44,101 nucleotides of DNA. It comes from Kagunavirus BCH953P1. A model generated the notes under the pieces. That model ran no database searches. It was not told the origin of the DNA and saw nothing but the letters and a program-made list of their open reading frames with translations. The translations under genes were made by a program, and so were the position numbers. The stretch lies in sequence record OZ035805.1. The stretch is one strand, 5' to 3'. Shown piece by piece: positions 2,796 through 44,101 of this stretch (its first letter is position 1; each line of letters starts with the position of its first letter).

Positions 2796-3872
2796 ATGCT
2801 ATTAACTTTAGCGCCACAGGGTTTATCTATGAGATTACTTACATCCCTAATCAGCCACCAGATTTGGCTGCAACGCACCGCATCGGGCGAAGTGAAAGAC
2901 CTTGCGCCTTTCATTAAGGAGATGCGGGACGAAATCAAACGGCAGGTGCTGCTGTTCGGTGACGATGGGCGTAGCACCGCGCGACTGAATAAACTGTTAC
3001 GCGACCTGGAAGAAGCACTGAGCGGACTTACGGGCGACTGGCAAACAAAGCTGACGGAAGACCTTAAGGAACTGGCGGAGTATGAAGCAGAGTGGAACGT
3101 AAAAACGCTGACGGCTAACGTTAACGCGGAATTTGTTACACCCGCCGCCGAGCAGGTGTGGTCCGCTGCCGAGTTTCAGCCTCTGTCGCTAAGCGACAAG
3201 CCTGTCGATTTCACCAAGCTGATGTCGGACTGGGGTGAAACGGAGGTTGCGCGCCTGGTAACTGGTGTTAAGATGGGTTTCGTACAAGGGCAAACCACAC
3301 GGCAGATTGTTAAGAATGTTGTAGGCGCTGGCGGACTGGCCGACATCTCAGAACGTAACGCAGCTACCGTAATCCGCACCGCGCTGTCGCACGTATCCAA
3401 CGAAGCCCGTAACGAGACGTACCGCCAGAACGACGACATCATCGAGAAATACGAATGGGTATCAACGCTGGACAGCCGTACCAGTACGATTTGCAGAGCC
3501 AGAGACGGAATGACGTGGGAAATCGGTAAAGGGCCGATGCCCCCCGCCCATCCGAACTGTCGATCGTGCACGGCACCGGTAATCAGTTCAGAGTTCGATT
3601 TCCTGGATAAAGGCGCGAAACGCGCAGCTAAGGGCGCAGAAGGTGGTACTCAGGTAAGCGCAGACACCACTTACTACGAGTTCCTGAAACAACAACCGGC
3701 ATGGTTTCAGGACCAGGCTCTCGGGCCAACCCGCGGTAAGATTTTCCGCAACAGCGGTATATCGCCGGAGGAGTTTCGCGTAATATCTGTAGATGGTTTC
3801 GGGAATCCGCTCACGCTTAAGCAGATGGCGGAACTCGATAAACGTGTTGCTGATTATCTGAAAGGGGAATAA
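2796..3872 (+). CDS. head morphogenesis protein (Mu F / SPP1 gp7-like)
   Basis: 358 aa; motif region WVSTLDSRTSTICRARDG...HPNCRC typical of F-like minor head proteins; start uncertain (hairpin 2770-2785 just upstream, alternative ATG 2829). Confidence 0.7.
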   Translation: MLLTLAPQGLSMRLLTSLISHQIWLQRTASGEVKDLAPFIKEMRDEIKRQVLLFGDDGRSTARLNKLLRDLEEALSGLTGDWQTKLTEDLKELAEYEAEWNVKTLTANVNAEFVTPAAEQVWSAAEFQPLSLSDKPVDFTKLMSDWGETEVARLVTGVKMGFVQGQTTRQIVKNVVGAGGLADISERNAATVIRTALSHVSNEARNETYRQNDDIIEKYEWVSTLDSRTSTICRARDGMTWEIGKGPMPPAHPNCRSCTAPVISSEFDFLDKGAKRAAKGAEGGTQVSADTTYYEFLKQQPAWFQDQALGPTRGKIFRNSGISPEEFRVISVDGFGNPLTLKQMAELDKRVADYLKGE

Positions 3873-3955
3873 TGATGGGCTTTTTCAAAGTAACTGATTC
3901 CTAAGGGTAGAGGCGGTAAGCAAGGCGGCGAAGGTTACTAAGCCAGAATGATATG

Positions 3956-3985
3956 AGGCCCCGTTAAGGGGCCTTAGTTTTATTT
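3956..3985 (+). terminator. rho-independent terminator
   Basis: stem AGGCCCC / GGGGCCT with 5-nt loop followed by TAGTTTTATTT. Confidence 0.6.
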
Positions 3986-4201
3986 AAAGAATATCGCGAA
4001 CTTCTTGTAACCCGCTGGCTCGTTGCGCTGACCATGTTCGATAGCAAAACGTTGAACGTTGTTAAAATCGTTCTCTTCCATACCGTCGGTGCAAAAGGTA
4101 AAAAAAAAGTTACGTTTGTTTCCGATAAGCACACGGCTCGCAACATCAATGCTGTAAAGTTCTTCGATAGCGCGTACCACGTTTGCAGTAGCTTTGTTCA
4201 T
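3980..4201 (-). CDS. hypothetical protein (antisense insertion in head module)
   Basis: 73 aa ORF opposite to flanking genes; AGGA SD 8 nt upstream; own upstream promoter repeat; contains T9 homopolymer encoding FFF. Confidence 0.5.
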   Translation of the reverse strand: MNKATANVVRAIEELYSIDVASRVLIGNKRNFFFTFCTDGMEENDFNNVQRFAIEHGQRNEPAGYKKFAIFFK

Positions 4202-4236
4202 TTCTAAATTCCTTATCTCTCGTTTCGATGTAATGA

Positions 4237-4265
4237 ATAGTACCCTATTATATTGGGGTGCGCAA
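4237..4265 (-). promoter_or_regulatory. promoter-like element TTGCGC-17-TACTAT with AATAG-N4-CTATT palindrome
   Basis: part of 32-bp exact repeat (4234-4265 = 13779-13810) placed about 35 bp upstream of minus-strand gene start at 4201. Confidence 0.45.
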
Positions 4266-4540
4266 ACTGTTTATTCACCTATTTCAGTTATTCCACTTGA
4301 TTGTAAATGTCGGAATAAACTATTCGAATAGTTGACTTTTCACTGAAAATATGATAAGCTCCACCTGAGCTTGTGAAGTATGAACAAGCGACCGCGGCGC
4401 GGGCAGGTAACGGAGCTGGACGTAAGTCCTGAGTGTAGTTACGCTGACGCGTTCGGAAGGGTCATACTATATTGCTTGTGTAAAAAGTAACTGGTTTACT
4501 GAGATTACGCCGTTTCTATGTTTAAATGATAAGGACTAGC

Positions 4541-4568
4541 GCCCCGCTTTACGGCGGGGCTTTACTTA
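4541..4568 (+). terminator. rho-independent terminator
   Basis: stem GCCCCGC / GCGGGGC, 6-nt loop, then TTTACTT; lies just upstream of the spanin RBS. Confidence 0.55.
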
Positions 4569-4584
4569 TCGAGAAAGGAGAAAC

Positions 4585-4971
4585 ATGAATCTTAAAGCAA
4601 CTGTCGTAGCAGGAGCATGTTTCATCGTCCTGGCTTACGCACACGGCATCTACCAGTATCGCAGCGGCTGGAACGAAGGCCGGGCGAATCTCGTTTCGCA
4701 GCAACAGCAGAAGGCGCAGGCTGAGTTAGCGAAGAAAACACAACGGCAGCAGCAGGACGAATCAAAGGCTGCCGCTGCTGACAACGAAGGCAAGACGAAA
4801 TCAGAGGTGATTACCCGTGAAGTCGTTAAGTACATTAAAACGCCTGGCCGCAGCGTGTGCACTTTTGACCCTGAGCGCGTGCAGCTCAAGTCCCGCGCCG
4901 TCGCAAACGCAAATTCCATCCCCGGATACGACGATGATGCAGCCACCGTGCAAACTGGCACCGCCAAGTAG
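4585..4971 (+). CDS. i-spanin (Rz-like)
   Basis: 128 aa; N-terminal TM segment (VVAGACFIVLAYAHGI) then Q/A/K-rich helical region; o-spanin gene begins inside its 3' end in another frame. Confidence 0.8.
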   Translation: MNLKATVVAGACFIVLAYAHGIYQYRSGWNEGRANLVSQQQQKAQAELAKKTQRQQQDESKAAAADNEGKTKSEVITREVVKYIKTPGRSVCTFDPERVQLKSRAVANANSIPGYDDDAATVQTGTAK

Positions 4972-5080
4972 CGACGCTGACGAGGATTTGGCTATCGACG
5001 TTCAGAATGCCGAATGTGTACGGCAATTGAGACTGAAAGTGTTCATGTTGCAGGATTACGTGAGGAATATTCTGGAATAG
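4817..5080 (+). CDS. o-spanin (Rz1-like outer membrane lipoprotein)
   Basis: 87 aa; lipoprotein signal with lipobox LSAC; proline-rich mature part; overlaps i-spanin out of frame. Confidence 0.8.
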   Translation: MKSLSTLKRLAAACALLTLSACSSSPAPSQTQIPSPDTTMMQPPCKLAPPSSDADEDLAIDVQNAECVRQLRLKVFMLQDYVRNILE

Positions 5081-5162
5081 TTGCCTTGCATGTTGGAATA
5101 ATTTATTCTTGACATGTAAATCCGGGTGGCCCGGATTCCAACGTCCAGGGGACATACTGACT

Positions 5163-5864
5163 ATGAATCGTTTTTTACGTTATCCGTTCCAGGAAGAAGC
5201 TGGAGCAGAAGATAAATCTGGCGGCGGTGACGCGCCGAAAATGTTCACCGCTGAAGAAGTTCAGGCGCTGATTGAGAAAGAAGTCGCCGGACTTAAGGCC
5301 AATCAGGAAGCGTTGCTGGCGGAGAAGAAAGAAGCCGCCCGTAAAGCAAAAGAGGCCGAAGAAGAACGGCAGCGCGCACACCAGGAGGCGTTAAAAGCCG
5401 CTGGTAAAATGGACGAGTTCGAAAAGACTATTCGTAGCCAGTATGACCCGGTGTTAGCTGAGAAAGATGGTCGCATCTCCAGAATGGCAGAGCGCATCCT
5501 CGGCAGCGAACGTAAAGCAGTGTTAGGCTCTTTCGCAGGTGACTTCATCACCCCGGAAGCAGTGGACATTCTTGCGCCGTTCGTTAAAACTGAGTTTGAA
5601 GGCGATGATGTGGTTACTAAGTTTGTTGGCGCAGACGGTAATGTAATCACGACTGACCCTGAACAGTTCCGCAAATACCTGCGCGAACATAAAGCGTTTT
5701 CGCATTTGATTAAAGCAAATGCAGCTTCCGGCGGCGGGGCTTCCGGTAGCAAAGGCGGCGGGGCCGCACCAGCGTTTAAAGACATGAGTGAAGCGGAGCG
5801 TTTAGCTCTGTATAAATCGAACCCTGCCGAATTTGAACGGCAACTTAAAGCCCTGAGGAAATAA
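5163..5864 (+). CDS. head scaffolding protein (putative)
   Basis: A/E/K-rich helical protein directly upstream of the major capsid gene; first ATG of the ORF (the longer ORF starts with TTG at 5109). Confidence 0.55.
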   Translation: MNRFLRYPFQEEAGAEDKSGGGDAPKMFTAEEVQALIEKEVAGLKANQEALLAEKKEAARKAKEAEEERQRAHQEALKAAGKMDEFEKTIRSQYDPVLAEKDGRISRMAERILGSERKAVLGSFAGDFITPEAVDILAPFVKTEFEGDDVVTKFVGADGNVITTDPEQFRKYLREHKAFSHLIKANAASGGGASGSKGGGAAPAFKDMSEAERLALYKSNPAEFERQLKALRK

Positions 5865-39160: not shown

Positions 39161-39301
39161 CCAGCATCTTATTTATCTGGGTGAGTTCAAAACACAGGAA
39201 CGCGCAGCAATCGCTAATCGGTTATTTAATTACTGGAAATCGCTGGGGTACGATGATATTCCAACGAAACCGCAGAGACGACAATACATCTGGAGACATA
39301 A

Positions 39302-39742
39302 ATGACTACAATCGCGTTTGACGGAAAGACAATGGCCTGCGACACCCGTGTTGTGTGCGGAAGTAACTGCTACAACACTGACACAAAGATATACGAGAAT
39401 GATTTTGCTGTTATTGGGGTGGCTGGTGATGCTGGAGTAGGGGCTATGCTTATCGATTGCTCTGGTATTCTTCTGGCAAAGCACTATGACTTCGATTTCG
39501 AAGCTCTGGTGTTCGTGAAAGACACAGAAAAGGTGTACAAAGTTGCGTTTTATAAATCATGGGATTGCGCACTAAGTTCGGTTATCCCTGTTGCCGATGT
39601 GCGCGCTGCCGTAGGGTCCGGCGCCCCTTATGCACTGGCGGCTATGTATTTGGGTGAAACCGCAACACGTGCGATTACTGTAGCCGCGCAATTCGACACT
39701 AACACTGGGGGCAAGGTTATTACCAAACAACTATTAAGATAA
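39302..39742 (+). CDS. HslV/proteasome-beta-like Ntn-hydrolase family protein (putative)
   Basis: 146 aa; N-terminus MTTIAFDG (Thr directly after Met) and GSGAPYALAAM signature resembling HslV MTTIV... and GSGGPYAQAA; GGAG SD. Confidence 0.55.
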   Translation: MTTIAFDGKTMACDTRVVCGSNCYNTDTKIYENDFAVIGVAGDAGVGAMLIDCSGILLAKHYDFDFEALVFVKDTEKVYKVAFYKSWDCALSSVIPVADVRAAVGSGAPYALAAMYLGETATRAITVAAQFDTNTGGKVITKQLLR

Positions 39743-39801
39743 TTCCTACCCGTGCTATCCTCCAGTTACTGCATACTTAATACGCACCTGGAGGATTCAT
39801 C

Positions 39802-40110
39802 TTGGATAAATTTACTGAAACAGTGACAGGCTGGCTTCTCGCTGCCGCGCTAGCCGGAGGGGTAATCGGACTACGACAACATAAGTCCGTTATTTCTGGC
39901 CCTATCGACGGATTCTGCTTTATCGCAACGGGCTTCACTTGCGCCGTATTTGGAGCACCTCTCGCAGCTCAATGGTTCGGTATCACGGGCGACCGTGAAA
40001 TCGCGGGCCTGGGCTTCATTATCGCCGTTCTCTGGATGCCTATCTATTCCCGTCTCTCCGGTATCGTCGCCGGAGAATACATCGCACGTCGAGGAGGCCC
40101 AGATGAATGA
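39802..40110 (+). CDS. holin (putative)
   Basis: 102 aa with multiple hydrophobic TM segments and charged C-terminus; immediately upstream of lysozyme cassette. Confidence 0.65.
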   Translation: MDKFTETVTGWLLAAALAGGVIGLRQHKSVISGPIDGFCFIATGFTCAVFGAPLAAQWFGITGDREIAGLGFIIAVLWMPIYSRLSGIVAGEYIARRGGPDE

Positions 40111-40375
40111 GTTATTCTGGTTCGGTGGTATGCTGGCAATCGGAGGCACATCGCTGTTTAATGTGTACCATCCGAGTATTGACGACGGGCTATTTGGCCG
40201 GGTGCTCTATATCCTGACTGCTATCGTCTGCGCTGCCGGATGTATCCACCTGTTACAGGGCTGCATGTCGCCAACGCTGCCTGAGACATTAATCACATTA
40301 GTTGCGCTGCGCCAGATTCGCCAGGCGTGGCTGGCATACGGAGGACATAAGCGTGTCTCGAAACATTTCAGATAA
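40103..40375 (+). CDS. membrane protein (second holin/antiholin-like)
   Basis: 90 aa, two TM segments; ATGAATGA overlap with holin stop; ends at lysozyme start. Confidence 0.5.
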   Translation: MNELFWFGGMLAIGGTSLFNVYHPSIDDGLFGRVLYILTAIVCAAGCIHLLQGCMSPTLPETLITLVALRQIRQAWLAYGGHKRVSKHFR

Positions 40376-40841
40376 TGGATTGCATTTCACCGCCGCGTTT
40401 GAGGGGTTCCGCGGAACTGCGTACCGCGCTACGCCGAACGAGAAGTACCTGACCATAGGCTACGGTCACTACGGACCGGACGTAACACCTGGCAAGACCA
40501 TCACGCCAGGTCAGGGCCTCCTGTTACTGAATCGCGATATGGCTAAGGCCGTAGCTGCGGTTGATGCGGCGGCGCACCATTCACTGACGCAGGCGCAGTT
40601 TGATGCTGTGTGCGACCTGGTCTATAACGCGGGTGCTGGTGTGATTGCCGCTACTACCGGCACGGGCAAGGCGCTGCGTTCTGGAGATGTTACGACACTG
40701 CGGGCCAAGCTGGCGCTGTTCATCAACCAGAACGGCAAACCGTTACTCGGCCTGCGTCGCCGTACCGCCGGTCGTCTGGCTCTGTTCGACGGCAAACCAT
40801 GGCAAGAGGCAGAGGCTATCGGGCGCGCGGTGAAAGGTTGA
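40353..40841 (+). CDS. endolysin, phage lysozyme (GH24-like)
   Basis: GTG start with GGAGGA SD; motifs FEGFRGTAY, TIGYGH and DLVYNAG typical of T4/lambda-type lysozymes. Confidence 0.8.
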   Translation: MSRNISDNGLHFTAAFEGFRGTAYRATPNEKYLTIGYGHYGPDVTPGKTITPGQGLLLLNRDMAKAVAAVDAAAHHSLTQAQFDAVCDLVYNAGAGVIAATTGTGKALRSGDVTTLRAKLALFINQNGKPLLGLRRRTAGRLALFDGKPWQEAEAIGRAVKG

Positions 40842-40906
40842 CACCTGAGACTAATCCGACGATACTTAAATCACCTCCTGCTCCATCCCTCTACTCTCCA
40901 GTTTTA

Positions 40907-40940
40907 TCCCGGCCCTGACCCAGCCGGGATTTTTTTTTTA
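40907..40940 (+). terminator. rho-independent terminator
   Basis: stem TCCCGGC / GCCGGGA with 9-nt loop followed by T10. Confidence 0.8.
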
Positions 40941-40961
40941 TCTATTTTCTGCAATGACTAG

Positions 40962-40990
40962 TTGACTATTACTCTCACACCAATTATATT
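40962..40990 (+). promoter_or_regulatory. sigma70-type promoter TTGACT-17-TATATT
   Basis: hexamers at 40962-40967 and 40985-40990, 33 nt upstream of ORF 41024. Confidence 0.55.
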
Positions 40991-41023
40991 TACTCCATCG
41001 ACAACGAGAACGGAGTAGAGAAG

Positions 41024-41272
41024 ATGAGTAACGTATCGACGATAGAAATAACCGAGGAACTTGAAGCTAAATGCATCGCATGGACTATGGATAACGACCC
41101 GGTTGCTATGCGTAAATTTCCAATGAAAATCACGGATACCGAGGCATTCAAAGACGCACAACTGATGGCACGTATAGCCGTTAGTAACCTGAGCAACAGC
41201 ATTCCGGCAGATGCGTTCTGGTTCGCCGCGATGCAGACACTGAAAGCAGCTTATGCAGGAGAGAAGAAATGA
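41024..41272 (+). CDS. hypothetical protein
   Basis: 82 aa; GGAGTAGAGAAG SD. Confidence 0.5.
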   Translation: MSNVSTIEITEELEAKCIAWTMDNDPVAMRKFPMKITDTEAFKDAQLMARIAVSNLSNSIPADAFWFAAMQTLKAAYAGEKK

Positions 41273-41433
41273 TTAAGTTAGCTACTGATTTAGTCCCTGG
41301 CGATGTTCTATTCATAGATAACCGCGACGGCGGGTATTTTGTGGAGGTTAAACGCGTATTCGAGGACTCGGGTATTTTAGTTGTTAACGGTGACATTGTA
41401 TTCCTGACTACCGATTATGTTGAGGTTAAGTGA
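41269..41433 (+). CDS. small protein, paralog family A (SH3-like)
   Basis: 54 aa; ATGA overlap; paralogous to 41588 and 25848 ORFs. Confidence 0.45.
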   Translation: MIKLATDLVPGDVLFIDNRDGGYFVEVKRVFEDSGILVVNGDIVFLTTDYVEVK

Positions 41434-41591
41434 TGAGCGAACAAGGCCCGGCAAGCCGACCATTACGCGTAGGCCGTAAAGTTAGTCACACCCCGTTCCC
41501 GACACGCGAGGAACTGATGAAACGCAACAGTTTCCCGGGGCCGGACAAGAACAAGTATCTCAATCGCATGTGGGGAGAGCGTAAAGTATGA
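41433..41591 (+). CDS. hypothetical small protein
   Basis: 52 aa; TGATG overlap. Confidence 0.4.
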   Translation: MSEQGPASRPLRVGRKVSHTPFPTREELMKRNSFPGPDKNKYLNRMWGERKV

Positions 41592-41758
41592 AAAAGTTAA
41601 TTGCAGATGTTGAGCTGGGCGATGTTATCCGTATCGATGACGGCTACGGCGGCTACGATGTAGAGGTGAAGCGAATCGATTGGGATTCTATGCTGCCGTT
41701 TGTCACTATTAATCGTGAAATCATGTTCGCCAAAACTGATTTAGTAGAGGTTCGATAA
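41588..41758 (+). CDS. small protein, paralog family A (SH3-like)
   Basis: 56 aa; MKKLIADVELGDVIRIDDGYGGYDVEVKR resembles MIKLATDLVPGDVLFIDNRDGGYFVEVKR. Confidence 0.45.
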   Translation: MKKLIADVELGDVIRIDDGYGGYDVEVKRIDWDSMLPFVTINREIMFAKTDLVEVR

Positions 41759-41982
41759 TGACTAACAACGAATACGAGAAACTTAGCGTCGAATCCGCGA
41801 CTGGTGAATCTGAAATAGCGTGGATTGACGTCCACATCGAACACCACTTACGGCAGGTAGATAATCTTATGGAACGCCGCCGTGAACTGATTAACCGCTT
41901 CAACCTGAACAAGGGGTTCGCTATTTCTGATGATTTCGATGGAGATTACCGAAATGGCGATTTTTATGAGGGGGCTGAATAA
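41758..41982 (+). CDS. hypothetical protein
   Basis: 74 aa; TAATG overlap. Confidence 0.5.
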   Translation: MTNNEYEKLSVESATGESEIAWIDVHIEHHLRQVDNLMERRRELINRFNLNKGFAISDDFDGDYRNGDFYEGAE

Positions 41983-42221
41983 TGCCTAAAATCACAATCG
42001 CATCGCTCGAGCGCCGTGTTCTGGTGCTTGAGTCGGAGAAACAGACGTTAGGCGGGCAACTGTCAATCAACGGTGAGTTTCAACTGGAGGCGTTTAAGTT
42101 GTTGCTTGATAAGTTGAAAGAGGGTGAAAAGCCTTGCGAGCATGATTACTATCTACATGTGGTTGGTGGGTTACATCGCGCCACGTGCATTAAGTGCGGT
42201 GAAGCGTATGGAGTTGCCTAA
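41982..42221 (+). CDS. coiled-coil protein with zinc-ribbon-like motif
   Basis: 79 aa; CEHDYY-x12-CIKCG resembles the repeats in ORF 38651. Confidence 0.5.
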   Translation: MPKITIASLERRVLVLESEKQTLGGQLSINGEFQLEAFKLLLDKLKEGEKPCEHDYYLHVVGGLHRATCIKCGEAYGVA

Positions 42222-42390
42222 ACCAGTAGTTATCGATGGCGTACTGTGGAAACCCTACTCGGTTAACCACATCGACGCAGACGGGAAGAAGTTTAGCTTC
42301 TACATTTTTGCAATTAGCCGGGAGCACGCCGCCTGCGTGGTAGACGATATACGAGAAACGGCGTGGCTTGGTGATGAGATAGTGGGGTAA
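42208..42390 (+). CDS. hypothetical small protein
   Basis: 60 aa from first ATG (track ORF starts with GTG at 42124); start uncertain. Confidence 0.4.
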   Translation: MELPKPVVIDGVLWKPYSVNHIDADGKKFSFYIFAISREHAACVVDDIRETAWLGDEIVG

Positions 42391-42392
42391 TT

Positions 42393-42623
42393 ATGTTTCA
42401 CGAACTGAAGATATTACCTGAGCATTTTGAGCCTGTTATGGCAGGAATCAAGCTGGCGGAACTTCGATTAAACGACCGCGACTTCAAGGAAGATGACACT
42501 CTGTGTCTGCGAGAATACGAAAACGGTGAATACACAGGCCGTATCGTTTACCGCCGCATCATTCATGTTGCGGACGTAGGGGTTTACCTACCCGGGTACG
42601 TGCTATTAAGTATGGAGGATTGA
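42393..42623 (+). CDS. DUF3850-like small protein (putative)
   Basis: 76 aa; pattern LKILPEHFEPV...LRLNDRDF...TGR recalled as DUF3850-like. Confidence 0.45.
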   Translation: MFHELKILPEHFEPVMAGIKLAELRLNDRDFKEDDTLCLREYENGEYTGRIVYRRIIHVADVGVYLPGYVLLSMED

Positions 42624-42625
42624 TT

Positions 42626-42796
42626 ATGTTCAGCGACATCAACGCAGCAATCGAAGAGGCAATCTGGCGTCGTTACAACGGCGAGCAACAGCGGCACTTC
42701 TGCCTGGTGCAACGCGGTAACATGATTGCCGTAGTGCAGGACCGCGATAACAAATATCCGAATGCGATGTGGACAACGAGGAATTTCTTAGAATGA
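42626..42796 (+). CDS. hypothetical small protein
   Basis: 56 aa; GGAGGA SD 6 nt upstream. Confidence 0.4.
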   Translation: MFSDINAAIEEAIWRRYNGEQQRHFCLVQRGNMIAVVQDRDNKYPNAMWTTRNFLE

Positions 42797-43029
42797 TTAC
42801 CAGCATTCCGAACCTGATTAAAGAATTCGGCACGATGGCGGAGACATGCCGACAAACCGGCATCAACGAAATGACGATTGCGAAGTACAGCAAAGACGTG
42901 AACTGCGAGCGCCACGTAATTTATAACAACCGTCTGATGACGCACGTTAAAACAAGCCCGGTGTTATTCACGCGCCGGGGTATCACTAAAACTGAGCAAC
43001 GCATCGCTAAAGAGGAGAGCGGAGAATGA
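42793..43029 (+). CDS. hypothetical protein
   Basis: 78 aa from ATG in ATGA overlap (track ORF starts with GTG at 42769). Confidence 0.5.
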   Translation: MITSIPNLIKEFGTMAETCRQTGINEMTIAKYSKDVNCERHVIYNNRLMTHVKTSPVLFTRRGITKTEQRIAKEESGE

Positions 43030-43226
43030 GCGAAAAACTATTGTTACTTATGCTGCATACGCTTATTGATGACAACGGACAGGTGGTATTCCAGTTTACC
43101 GGGCGAGATGACCTCCTAATCGACGTCTACGGTGGGACATTTGCTATTGGCGACGAGTTTGTAGAAAGAGGGGCTGCATTCCAGTATCTAAGCGACAATT
43201 ACGACGTGCTGGAAGATATTTGCTGA
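43026..43226 (+). CDS. hypothetical protein
   Basis: 66 aa; ATGA overlap. Confidence 0.5.
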   Translation: MSEKLLLLMLHTLIDDNGQVVFQFTGRDDLLIDVYGGTFAIGDEFVERGAAFQYLSDNYDVLEDIC

Positions 43227-43341
43227 TGAGACTACTAATCATCCCGAACGCCTGGGCTATCGCCGTAGCTAATGACCATTACGGCGGCGACGGTAAAAGA
43301 GCACCGCGGCACCGCATATACAACTGATTGGAGAGTGAAAA

Positions 43342-43491
43342 ATGGTTGAATTCGATGATGTTTCATTTGAGGAGCGCATAGACCGGGTTGTTTTAATAGT
43401 GTATTGGGGTTTTTACTCAAAAGCATTCGAAGGCGACACGAAAGCAGATTGCATAAATCAATTACTGCAATGGGCCGCAAGCCGAAAGTAA
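43342..43491 (+). CDS. hypothetical small protein
   Basis: 49 aa; GGAGAG SD; terminator immediately downstream. Confidence 0.35.
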   Translation: MVEFDDVSFEERIDRVVLIVYWGFYSKAFEGDTKADCINQLLQWAASRK

Positions 43492-43499
43492 CAACACCA

Positions 43500-43527
43500 A
43501 AAGCCCTCCGTAGAGGGCTTTTCTGTA
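43500..43527 (+). terminator. rho-independent terminator
   Basis: stem AAAGCCCTC / GAGGGCTTT with CGTA loop followed by TTCTGT. Confidence 0.55.
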
Positions 43528-43618
43528 CATCACGCCTAATCCCCTTATATAATCCATTTAGACGCGTAGGGCGCGTCTTATGCGCTCTGATGGTCAGACG
43601 CATATGCAAGGGGATTCT

Positions 43619-44101
43619 ATGAAGCTGAAACTCAAGCAGCCATCGCCAGAGGTGGTGCAAGCTGCACATGAAGAAGCTGTTAGCGCGAACCGTCGCCGTA
43701 AACGACCGCGCGGTAAACAGAGCCTTTATCAATCGTCCCGTAATTCCGCCGCGTTGTGGGACCCGGATTATTGCGACGCGTTAATCGAGTTCTTCGACCG
43801 CACGTCATGGGAACTTGTGCCCACGTCTAAGGGTAACGAACGCCCGCTGATTCAGGATAAACCGCCGTCGCTAGCCCGCTTCGCCTTACATATTGGCGTC
43901 ACTATCCCGATTATTAAGCTGTGGCTGCGCGAGATTCCCGCATTTGCAGAAGCCTGGGAGACAGCACAGGCACTGGAAGAGGCATACTTCACTGAGACAG
44001 GGGCCGCTGGCATCTCTGCTACGTTTGCCGCTGCGAAGCTGGGCCTGAATAAGAAAGAAGAATCGACTGGCGAGGGTTCTGAACCTATCGAGATTCGTTT
44101 C
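43619..44101 (+). CDS. terminase small subunit (putative), truncated at window end
   Basis: ORF open from ATG 43619 to the last base (161 codons, no stop); AAGGGG SD; in frame with ORF remnant 1..30 that ends TAATG at the TerL start; position upstream of TerL. Confidence 0.6.
   Translation, partial: MKLKLKQPSPEVVQAAHEEAVSANRRRKRPRGKQSLYQSSRNSAALWDPDYCDALIEFFDRTSWELVPTSKGNERPLIQDKPPSLARFALHIGVTIPIIKLWLREIPAFAEAWETAQALEEAYFTETGAAGISATFAAAKLGLNKKEESTGEGSEPIEIRF

Follow-up and report, generated by a model that had tools for sequence, protein, structure and literature searches.

Phase variation through simple sequence repeats (SSRs) is characteristic of the contingency loci of Haemophilus, Neisseria, Campylobacter and Bordetella (reviewed in PMC11868660 and PMC2831843). 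More recently, contingency loci have been described within phages: an A9 run in the agt gene of phage T2 (bases 288-296) and an A6 run in the rIIA gene of phage T4 (Gomez, Barrick and Waters, bioRxiv 2025, PMC12633550). Reversion at the T2 agt run is about 1000 times as fast as that of a point mutant and, for the two runs taken together, is raised 1,000- to 10,000-fold, with single-base steps predominating; moreover, a survey that included the BASEL collection found runs of six or more nucleotides to be widespread in coliphages (PMC12633550). The underlying mechanism is well known and its phage version has recently been described. The question of interest is how a run of this type behaves among natural relatives. 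Slippage at such runs occurs mostly in single-base steps, and poly-G tracts are found in the receptor-binding genes of Campylobacter phages.

The run considered here lies within a Kagunavirus genome (Guernseyvirinae; K1G-like siphophages of E. coli), which was analysed as one stretch of 44,101 nucleotides (termed here the window). The nearest record, OZ035754.1 (Kagunavirus BCH953P1), is 99.9% identical to the window over positions 1-23526 and 39175-44101 and is a mosaic in between. An earlier note, made from the letters of the window, had placed an A9/T9 homopolymer at 4100-4108, within an antisense ORF at 3980-4201 and encoding three phenylalanines; it was exact as to coordinates, strand, frame and residues. 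These positions are exactly AAAAAAAAA--that is, nine A residues on the plus strand, flanked by GGT and GTT--and the minus strand reads AAC TTT TTT TTT ACC, corresponding to N31-F32-F33-F34-T35 of a 73-residue protein. The repeat thus occupies codons 32-34 of the ORF, where the gain or loss of a single base shifts the frame. It is the second longest homopolymer within the window, the sole longer run being a T10 (at 40930-40939) and all others being at most 7 nucleotides long. Statistical unusualness of the run was considered and rejected, inasmuch as a run of nine or more A, or of nine or more T, occurred in 133 of 300 simulated 44.1-kb sequences (44%; first-order Markov model). The interest of the A9 run therefore lies in its behaviour among relatives, rather than in its presence.

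Table 1. Coordinates of features at the locus (positions are those of the window; an empty cell indicates that no strand applies or was given).
Feature	Position	Strand	Remarks
Mu-F-like head-morphogenesis gene	2796-3872	+	Pfam PF04233
Variable cargo slot	3873-4584		Flanked by the Mu-F-like head-morphogenesis and Rz-like spanin genes; GC 43% versus ~53% in the flanks
GC-rich hairpin	3954-3976		Directly 3' of the stop codon of the 73-aa gene; scores as an intrinsic terminator
73-aa accessory gene	3980-4201	-	Homologue of phrog_7673 without a capsid-targeting peptide; allele of the window is in frame (ON)
T9 mononucleotide repeat (A9 on the plus strand)	4100-4108	-	In frame, Phe32-Phe33-Phe34; length-variable site
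Upstream part of mobile cassette	4202-4265	-	Conserved with copies of the gene at another locus in other Kagunaviruses
Rz-like spanin gene	4585-4971		Borders the slot

The ORF lies antisense within a slot of about 0.7 kb (Table 1). In most relatives this slot contains different cargo--for example, a sliding clamp, a Dam methylase, a RusA-like resolvase or hypothetical genes--and the region between the head-morphogenesis and spanin genes is thus a cargo hotspot. The gene is preceded by an AGGA ribosome-binding site 9-10 nucleotides ahead of the ATG and, further upstream, by a perfect TATAAT (4252-4247 on the minus strand) with a poor -35, which constitutes a candidate promoter read by eye and not called by a scan. 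The hairpin beyond its stop codon scores as an intrinsic terminator of the convergent plus-strand head-morphogenesis gene; transcription of the minus strand, in which direction it has no T-tail, probably stops there as well. Positions 3972-4265, which comprise the ORF plus 64 nucleotides upstream, share about 79% DNA identity with copies that, in M01, Bas70 and other Kagunaviruses, reside at a different, early-gene locus; this implies movement of a short cassette from one locus to another. Within the window the gene is present once, a search for a second copy having found none. A search of positions 3700-4800 against Rfam returned no family (best match, E 0.29).

Other elements of the slot and of its border may be noted separately. 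On the plus strand, a unit at 4327-4572 starts with a promoter-like element read by eye (TTGACT-N17-TAAGCT with an upstream TG, at about 4332-4360), continues as a stretch of about 200 nucleotides that folds moderately better than shuffled sequences (MFE -71.7 kcal/mol, z -2.2), and ends in a strong intrinsic terminator (4541-4560) located just before the ribosome-binding site and ATG (at 4585) of the spanin gene. Most Kagunavirus relatives retain this unit, for which Rfam has no matching family; it may be a small RNA or a leader that regulates the spanin genes. A lipoprotein ORF (4817-5080; LTLSAC lipobox) overlaps the Rz-like gene in the +1 frame, and the spanin genes sit in the structural module, about 35 kb from the endolysin gene (40302-40841).

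That the ORF is a real gene under purifying selection follows both from its pattern of substitution and from its predicted structure. Nei-Gojobori estimates over 21 pairs (the window gene plus six homologues) yield dN/dS values of 0.03-0.26, with dS reaching more than 1, and AlphaFold2 models the protein with confidence (mean pLDDT 87.8, pTM 0.74, from an alignment of 12 sequences). The modelled fold is alpha-beta-beta-alpha-beta-beta, with helices at residues 3-16 and 43-55 and strands at 24-26, 33-37, 59-62 and 67-71; Phe32-Phe34 are placed at the boundary between a loop and strand beta-2. Fold searches with this model recovered generic alpha/beta sandwiches only, and Foldseek found nothing below E 0.05 in the PDB. 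At the sequence level the protein has no match in Pfam, PADLOC or the PDB; its only family match is to PHROG 7673 (phrog_7673), annotated 'internal head protein' (E 6e-22).

The tract was compared among relatives found by protein search together with contig look-ups. (Exact-flank pattern scans with a variable gap gave no match in IMG/VR, JGI metagenomes or GTDB genomes, and a protein-seeded search for the locus in IMG/VR found nothing.) In all of the allele contigs the gene occupies the Mu-F/spanin slot, and the flanks around the run are identical among these slot alleles: ATCGGAAACAAACGTAAC-Tn-ACCTTTTGCAC. The run itself differs. A T6 allele (contigs L012-14, L017-19 and L020) is in frame and encodes 72 residues; a TTCTTT allele (L015-16) is likewise in frame; T7 (L007, GCA_905216595.1; L008, Logan ERR5261275) is out of frame and yields a truncated product of 45 residues; T8 (OZ035754.1; L009, ERZ27305730; L010, Logan ERR3451020) is out of frame and yields 78 residues with a frameshifted C-terminus; and T9 (the window; L011, the metagenome contig ERZ28622778) is in frame and encodes 73 residues. 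In terms of the proteins recovered, the 73-residue form (P0001) reads NFFFT and the 72-residue forms (P0002-P0005) read NFFT, while the T8 run gives a 78-residue form (P0017) reading NFFLPFAPTVWKR... and the T7 run a 45-residue form (P0016) that reads NFFYLLHRRYGRERF and then stops. Copies at the early-gene locus read AAC TTC TTT ACG, and phage SF has TTT TTC.

Tract length among relatives is therefore far from uniform--uniformity being what the earlier note had set against its own proposal--and takes the values T6, T7, T8 and T9 at a single site. Because the length varies in this way within near-identical cassettes, with truncation or a frameshift of the product wherever the run is out of frame, these comparative data support the prediction that the tract is prone to slippage. 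The accompanying suggestion of a phase-variable gene holds in part: the tract is length-polymorphic and toggles the reading frame in relatives, whereas phase variation in the strict sense, meaning frequent and reversible switching in which each state has its benefit, would be a further step. The caution that the frame might need confirming can be set aside, since the T9 protein is colinear with all of the 72-residue homologues on both sides of the run and since contig L011 carries the same T9 allele independently of the window; hence the frame of the window is correct.

Two further observations concern the same region in other contigs. In Mosigvirus FL31 (PP400782.1; L005 1944-2215), a T7 at the same Asn-Phe-Phe codons splits the homologue into two annotated ORFs; phage SF has T5-C at that codon pair and an intact gene, so that the FL31 frameshift is an independent event at the homologous site. 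And the contigs with T6 or TTCTTT alleles designated L012-L016 and L020, which belong to the sister clade, harbor an additional 153-residue gene between the 72-residue gene and the Mu-F gene.

Over positions 3700-4800 the window and OZ035754.1 differ only in the run itself (A9 versus A8), the A8 form breaking the frame. Over the approximately 28.5 kb for which the two are nearly identical there are 24 substitutions and only 2 indels, and both indels fall at the two longest homopolymers, the run considered here (A9/A8) and that at 40930 (T10/T9). Errors of long-read or flow-based sequencing classically leave just such a pattern, with indels restricted to the longest runs, and the OZ035754.1 record is unannotated, with no paper on BCH953 found in a literature search; one might thus suppose that a single true tract length occurs everywhere, the homopolymer having been miscalled in the T7 and T8 records or else in the T9 of the window. 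This is improbable given the diversity of sources: T7 comes from both NCBI and Logan, T8 from both MEGAHIT-style ENA assemblies and Logan, and T9 was recovered independently in L011. Contig names (k141_, NODE_..cov, Logan) point to short-read assemblers, and in short-read assemblies consensus errors at runs of 7-9 nucleotides are uncommon. Also at odds with miscalling are the facts that tract length follows the cassette haplotype, that T6 is stable over three haplotypes, and that five other homopolymers of 5-6 nucleotides within the shared 3.2 kb never vary in length. Moreover, measurements on a coliphage A9 run have shown slippage there to be real and frequent (PMC12633550). The second of the two variable runs, T10 at 40930-40939 (T9 in OZ035754.1), is the U-tail of an intrinsic terminator after the endolysin gene, so that its change in length is neutral; it thus serves as a neutral control, indicating that long runs do change length between these two genomes.

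How rapidly the run changes relative to its surroundings may be gauged from a 521-nucleotide alignment of the cassette. All alleles of T7 or longer belong to one clade (termed here clade A), the members of which differ pairwise by 0-4 substitutions; from this clade the T6 and TTCTTT alleles diverge by about 10%, and from one another by 7-12%. Clade A comprises four haplotypes: (i) that of the window (T9) and OZ035754.1 (T8), which have in common two private substitutions giving Q58 instead of L; (ii) that of L007 and L008 (T7), which has no private substitution within the cassette; (iii) that of L009 and L010 (T8), with two private substitutions; and (iv) that of L011 (T9), with one (N2K). Since its flanking genes are about 10% diverged, L007 represents a different phage background. 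Members of the L007/L008 and L009/L010 pairs are identical over their shared length and perhaps derive from the same samples, which leaves about five independent observations for clade A. Whatever the ancestor, at least three length changes are required: three if it was T8, four single steps if it was T9, and five if it was T7. Set against 5 substitutions over about 520 sites, this corresponds to an excess of about 300-fold per site and, thus, to a raised mutation rate of the kind seen at contingency loci, as gauged comparatively from natural alleles. The OFF alleles have no other lesion: once the run is set back to T6 or T9, each of them again encodes a full-length protein. It follows, from the occurrence of OFF alleles in otherwise intact, nearly identical cassettes, that tract length changes faster than point substitutions accumulate.

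Other single-base indels are seen within clade A. A C is missing at about 3908, an intergenic position, in both the window and OZ035754.1. Another C is missing from L009 at about 5151, within a C4 run located in the gap between the o-spanin stop codon at 5080 and a probable start codon near 5163; the mechanically generated ORF list, however, includes an ORF that begins at 5109.

Taken together, these patterns make it probable that the T9 tract is a true mononucleotide repeat, prone to slippage, and that the real but dispensable Kagunavirus accessory gene around it has natural ON and OFF alleles. The run would have expanded from a pair of phenylalanine codons ancestral to the family, as is suggested by the TTT TTT or TTC TTT of the sister clade, by the TTC TTT at the other locus, and by the TTT TTC of T4-like phages. 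After growing beyond six it would have become unstable, single T residues being gained or lost through slipped-strand mispairing during phage DNA replication. The window represents the ON state, with one extra phenylalanine at the start of strand beta-2; this residue, which distinguishes the protein from every 72-residue homologue, would be the footprint of a net +3 expansion. Because single-base steps dominate slippage and because T7 and T8 occur in the same clade as T9, the T9 allele was most likely reached through OFF states--presumably stepwise from T6 to T7 to T8 to T9--which would imply reversion from OFF to ON. From the alleles at hand, the gene appears to occur in natural populations as a mixture of ON and OFF forms, which is contingency-type behaviour. 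It also appears to be dispensable for growth on at least one host, inasmuch as OZ035754.1, which is presumably from a cultured isolate, carries an OFF allele.

A less probable account is one-way decay at a mutational hotspot: a dispensable cargo gene is being lost, T7 and T8 are young pseudogenes, and there is no reversible or selected switching. Dispensability is indeed indicated by the three of about five clade A lineages that are OFF, the presumably cultured OZ035754.1 among them, and the slot is highly plastic, holding mostly other cargo and, in only two phage records of the collection, this cassette. Against decay, however, stand the strong purifying selection across the family and the lack of any second lesion in the OFF alleles. 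The history of the tract bears on the question in two ways. If the ancestor was T9 and arose by a single +3 event, then losses alone fit the tree in 3-4 events. On the other hand, T9 is in frame on two different haplotypes; it is exactly +3 relative to the T6 of the sister clade, and the intermediates T7 and T8 exist in clade A, so that slippage by single bases implies passage to OFF and back to ON; and the T7 allele lies on the central haplotype, the one without private substitutions.

The run might instead matter for how the gene is read. A/T runs of about 8-9 nucleotides support transcriptional slippage, as at the A9 run of T. thermophilus dnaX, at the U run of Shigella mxiE and at an A8 run of apoB, the rescue there being about 10% (PMC1088944). 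It is conceivable, then, that the run makes RNA polymerase or the ribosome slip in a programmed manner, resulting in two isoforms or in expression of the nominally OFF alleles; this is very unlikely to be the reason for the run. Slippery sequences are certainly at hand: besides the T9 of the window, the zero frame of T8 reads AAC UUU UUU UUA and so contains the heptamer U_UUU_UUA, at which a -1 shift would restore the downstream frame exactly, giving the T9 product. Yet the run is missing from most of the family (which has T6, TTCTTT or T5) and thus does not qualify as a conserved expression signal; the sequence downstream shows no evident stimulatory structure; and the alternative frame is no more open than synonymous shuffles predict (P 0.5-1.0). 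A slippery site accompanied by a second-frame product conserved among homologues was thus not found, and dual coding in the frame read from T8 was rejected, its openness being that expected from synonymous shuffling. Because the run is unconserved, the alternative frame unexceptional and a stimulatory structure lacking, slippage during expression is at most a modifier that makes the OFF state leaky. Within the preferred reading of a slippage-prone repeat, both T8 and T9 may be partly leaky in this sense, through either RNA-polymerase slippage or a -1 ribosomal shift on U_UUU_UUA.

Whether ON/OFF heterogeneity would benefit the phage depends on what the protein does, and here the relationship to T4-like phages is informative. 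A homologue with 52% identity over the full length occurs in about 160 T4-like phages (Mosigvirus and others). In the Mosigvirus phage SF, this is gp050 (87 residues; L006 2456-2719), the gene for which directly follows that of an IPI-like protein, with genes 3, 1, 57A and 57B further upstream; this is the classical polymorphic internal-protein locus. The N-terminus of gp050 is MKTFNEFISE, followed by SSGVK, and the product of the adjoining IPI-like gene starts with MKTYQEFIAE, which is the T4 capsid-targeting sequence (PMC3012670). Such sequences comprise about 10 residues and end where the prohead protease cleaves. The window protein begins with MNKAT, which aligns to INKAV of gp050 just past the targeting peptide, and all of the Kagunavirus copies are without an N-terminal capsid-targeting peptide. 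The homology itself is clear, both from the phrog_7673 match and from the identity to proteins of the Mosigvirus ipI locus; the gene, however, resides in a Kagunavirus (within the Mu-F/spanin slot of the window, or at the early-gene locus of M01 and Bas70) rather than in the hypervariable ipI region of a T4-like genome. Judging from these alignments, the Kagunavirus protein appears to be a homologue of a T-even internal protein without the defining targeting signal; given the absence of that peptide, it would fall outside the packaged internal-protein class, and it may act within the cell after expression rather than as an injected component of the virion. Packaged T4 internal proteins are defined by this peptide, and its absence from the Kagunavirus copies makes it probable that their annotation as 'internal head protein' (e.g., Bas70_0057; L004 1501-1719) has been over-transferred.

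According to the literature, T-even internal proteins form a diverse group of anti-restriction factors (PMC3012670), and by analogy this role provides a lead--the sole functional one--for the 73-residue protein. One may speculate that, like other T-even internal proteins, it is a host-specific counter-defence factor, in which case heterogeneity between ON and OFF would be useful. The stronger proposal--that the T-run is a selected bet-hedging switch of wild Kagunaviruses, acting on a descendant of an injected anti-restriction-type protein that has lost its capsid-targeting sequence and that is of benefit on certain hosts but, on others, carries a cost or sets off defence--is regarded here as unlikely. 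If it is nevertheless true, then the T8 'OFF' state would be deliberately leaky, by way of the -1 shift on U_UUU_UUA or of RNA-polymerase stuttering, and the T6/T7/T8/T9 series would be among the first evidence of a phage contingency locus from natural populations (that is, from isolates and metagenome assemblies).

For annotation, the slippage-prone repeat inferred here has direct consequences: the 73-residue frame should be retained in the window, and the broken gene in OZ035754.1 and in the T7 and T8 contigs should be treated as tract-length variants rather than as separate short genes. More generally, earlier demonstrations of hypermutable phage runs came from laboratory populations of T2 and T4 (the 2025 preprint, PMC12633550), whereas here ON and OFF alleles segregate among near-identical phages sampled independently in nature, as the mechanism predicts. 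The locus also offers a simple, testable case, consisting of one small gene, four tract lengths and a presumably cultured OFF isolate.

How, then, does the locus compare with the systems described previously? In regard to its protein, the nearest parallel is with the T-even internal head proteins (IPI*, IPII, IPIII and the polymorphic ipI-locus genes; PMC3012670): like IPI*, the window protein is small and compact. The Mosigvirus 87-residue protein bears the targeting peptide, however, whereas the window protein and all Kagunavirus copies do not, and the T-even proteins belong to T4-like phages, whereas the window gene belongs to a siphovirus. In regard to expression, the window run resembles the dnaX A9 and mxiE U runs, being an A/T run of 9 in coding sequence and long enough for RNA-polymerase stuttering; unlike these, it is unconserved among homologues and has no conserved second frame. 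Bacterial SSR loci share with the proposal made here the toggling of a frame by slipped-strand mispairing at a coding homopolymer; in the bacterial cases, surface or restriction-modification genes are involved and reversible switching has been demonstrated, whereas the window run is a poly-T in an accessory gene of a lytic phage and is represented by natural alleles. The closest likeness is to T2 agt, which, like the window locus, has an A/T run of 9 within a non-essential coliphage gene, such that a change of one base in either direction toggles the frame. The T2 and T4 phages are T-even, whereas the window is a Kagunavirus siphovirus, and the study of those phages measured rates, reversibility and a defence trade-off (TgvAB versus McrA/BC), whereas the window locus is described from natural alleles in isolates and metagenomes. 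As with the T2 agt and T4 rIIA runs, nonetheless, the window run appears, on comparative evidence, to mutate far above ordinary sites, and it is thus a further natural example of the hypermutable type of contingency site already described.
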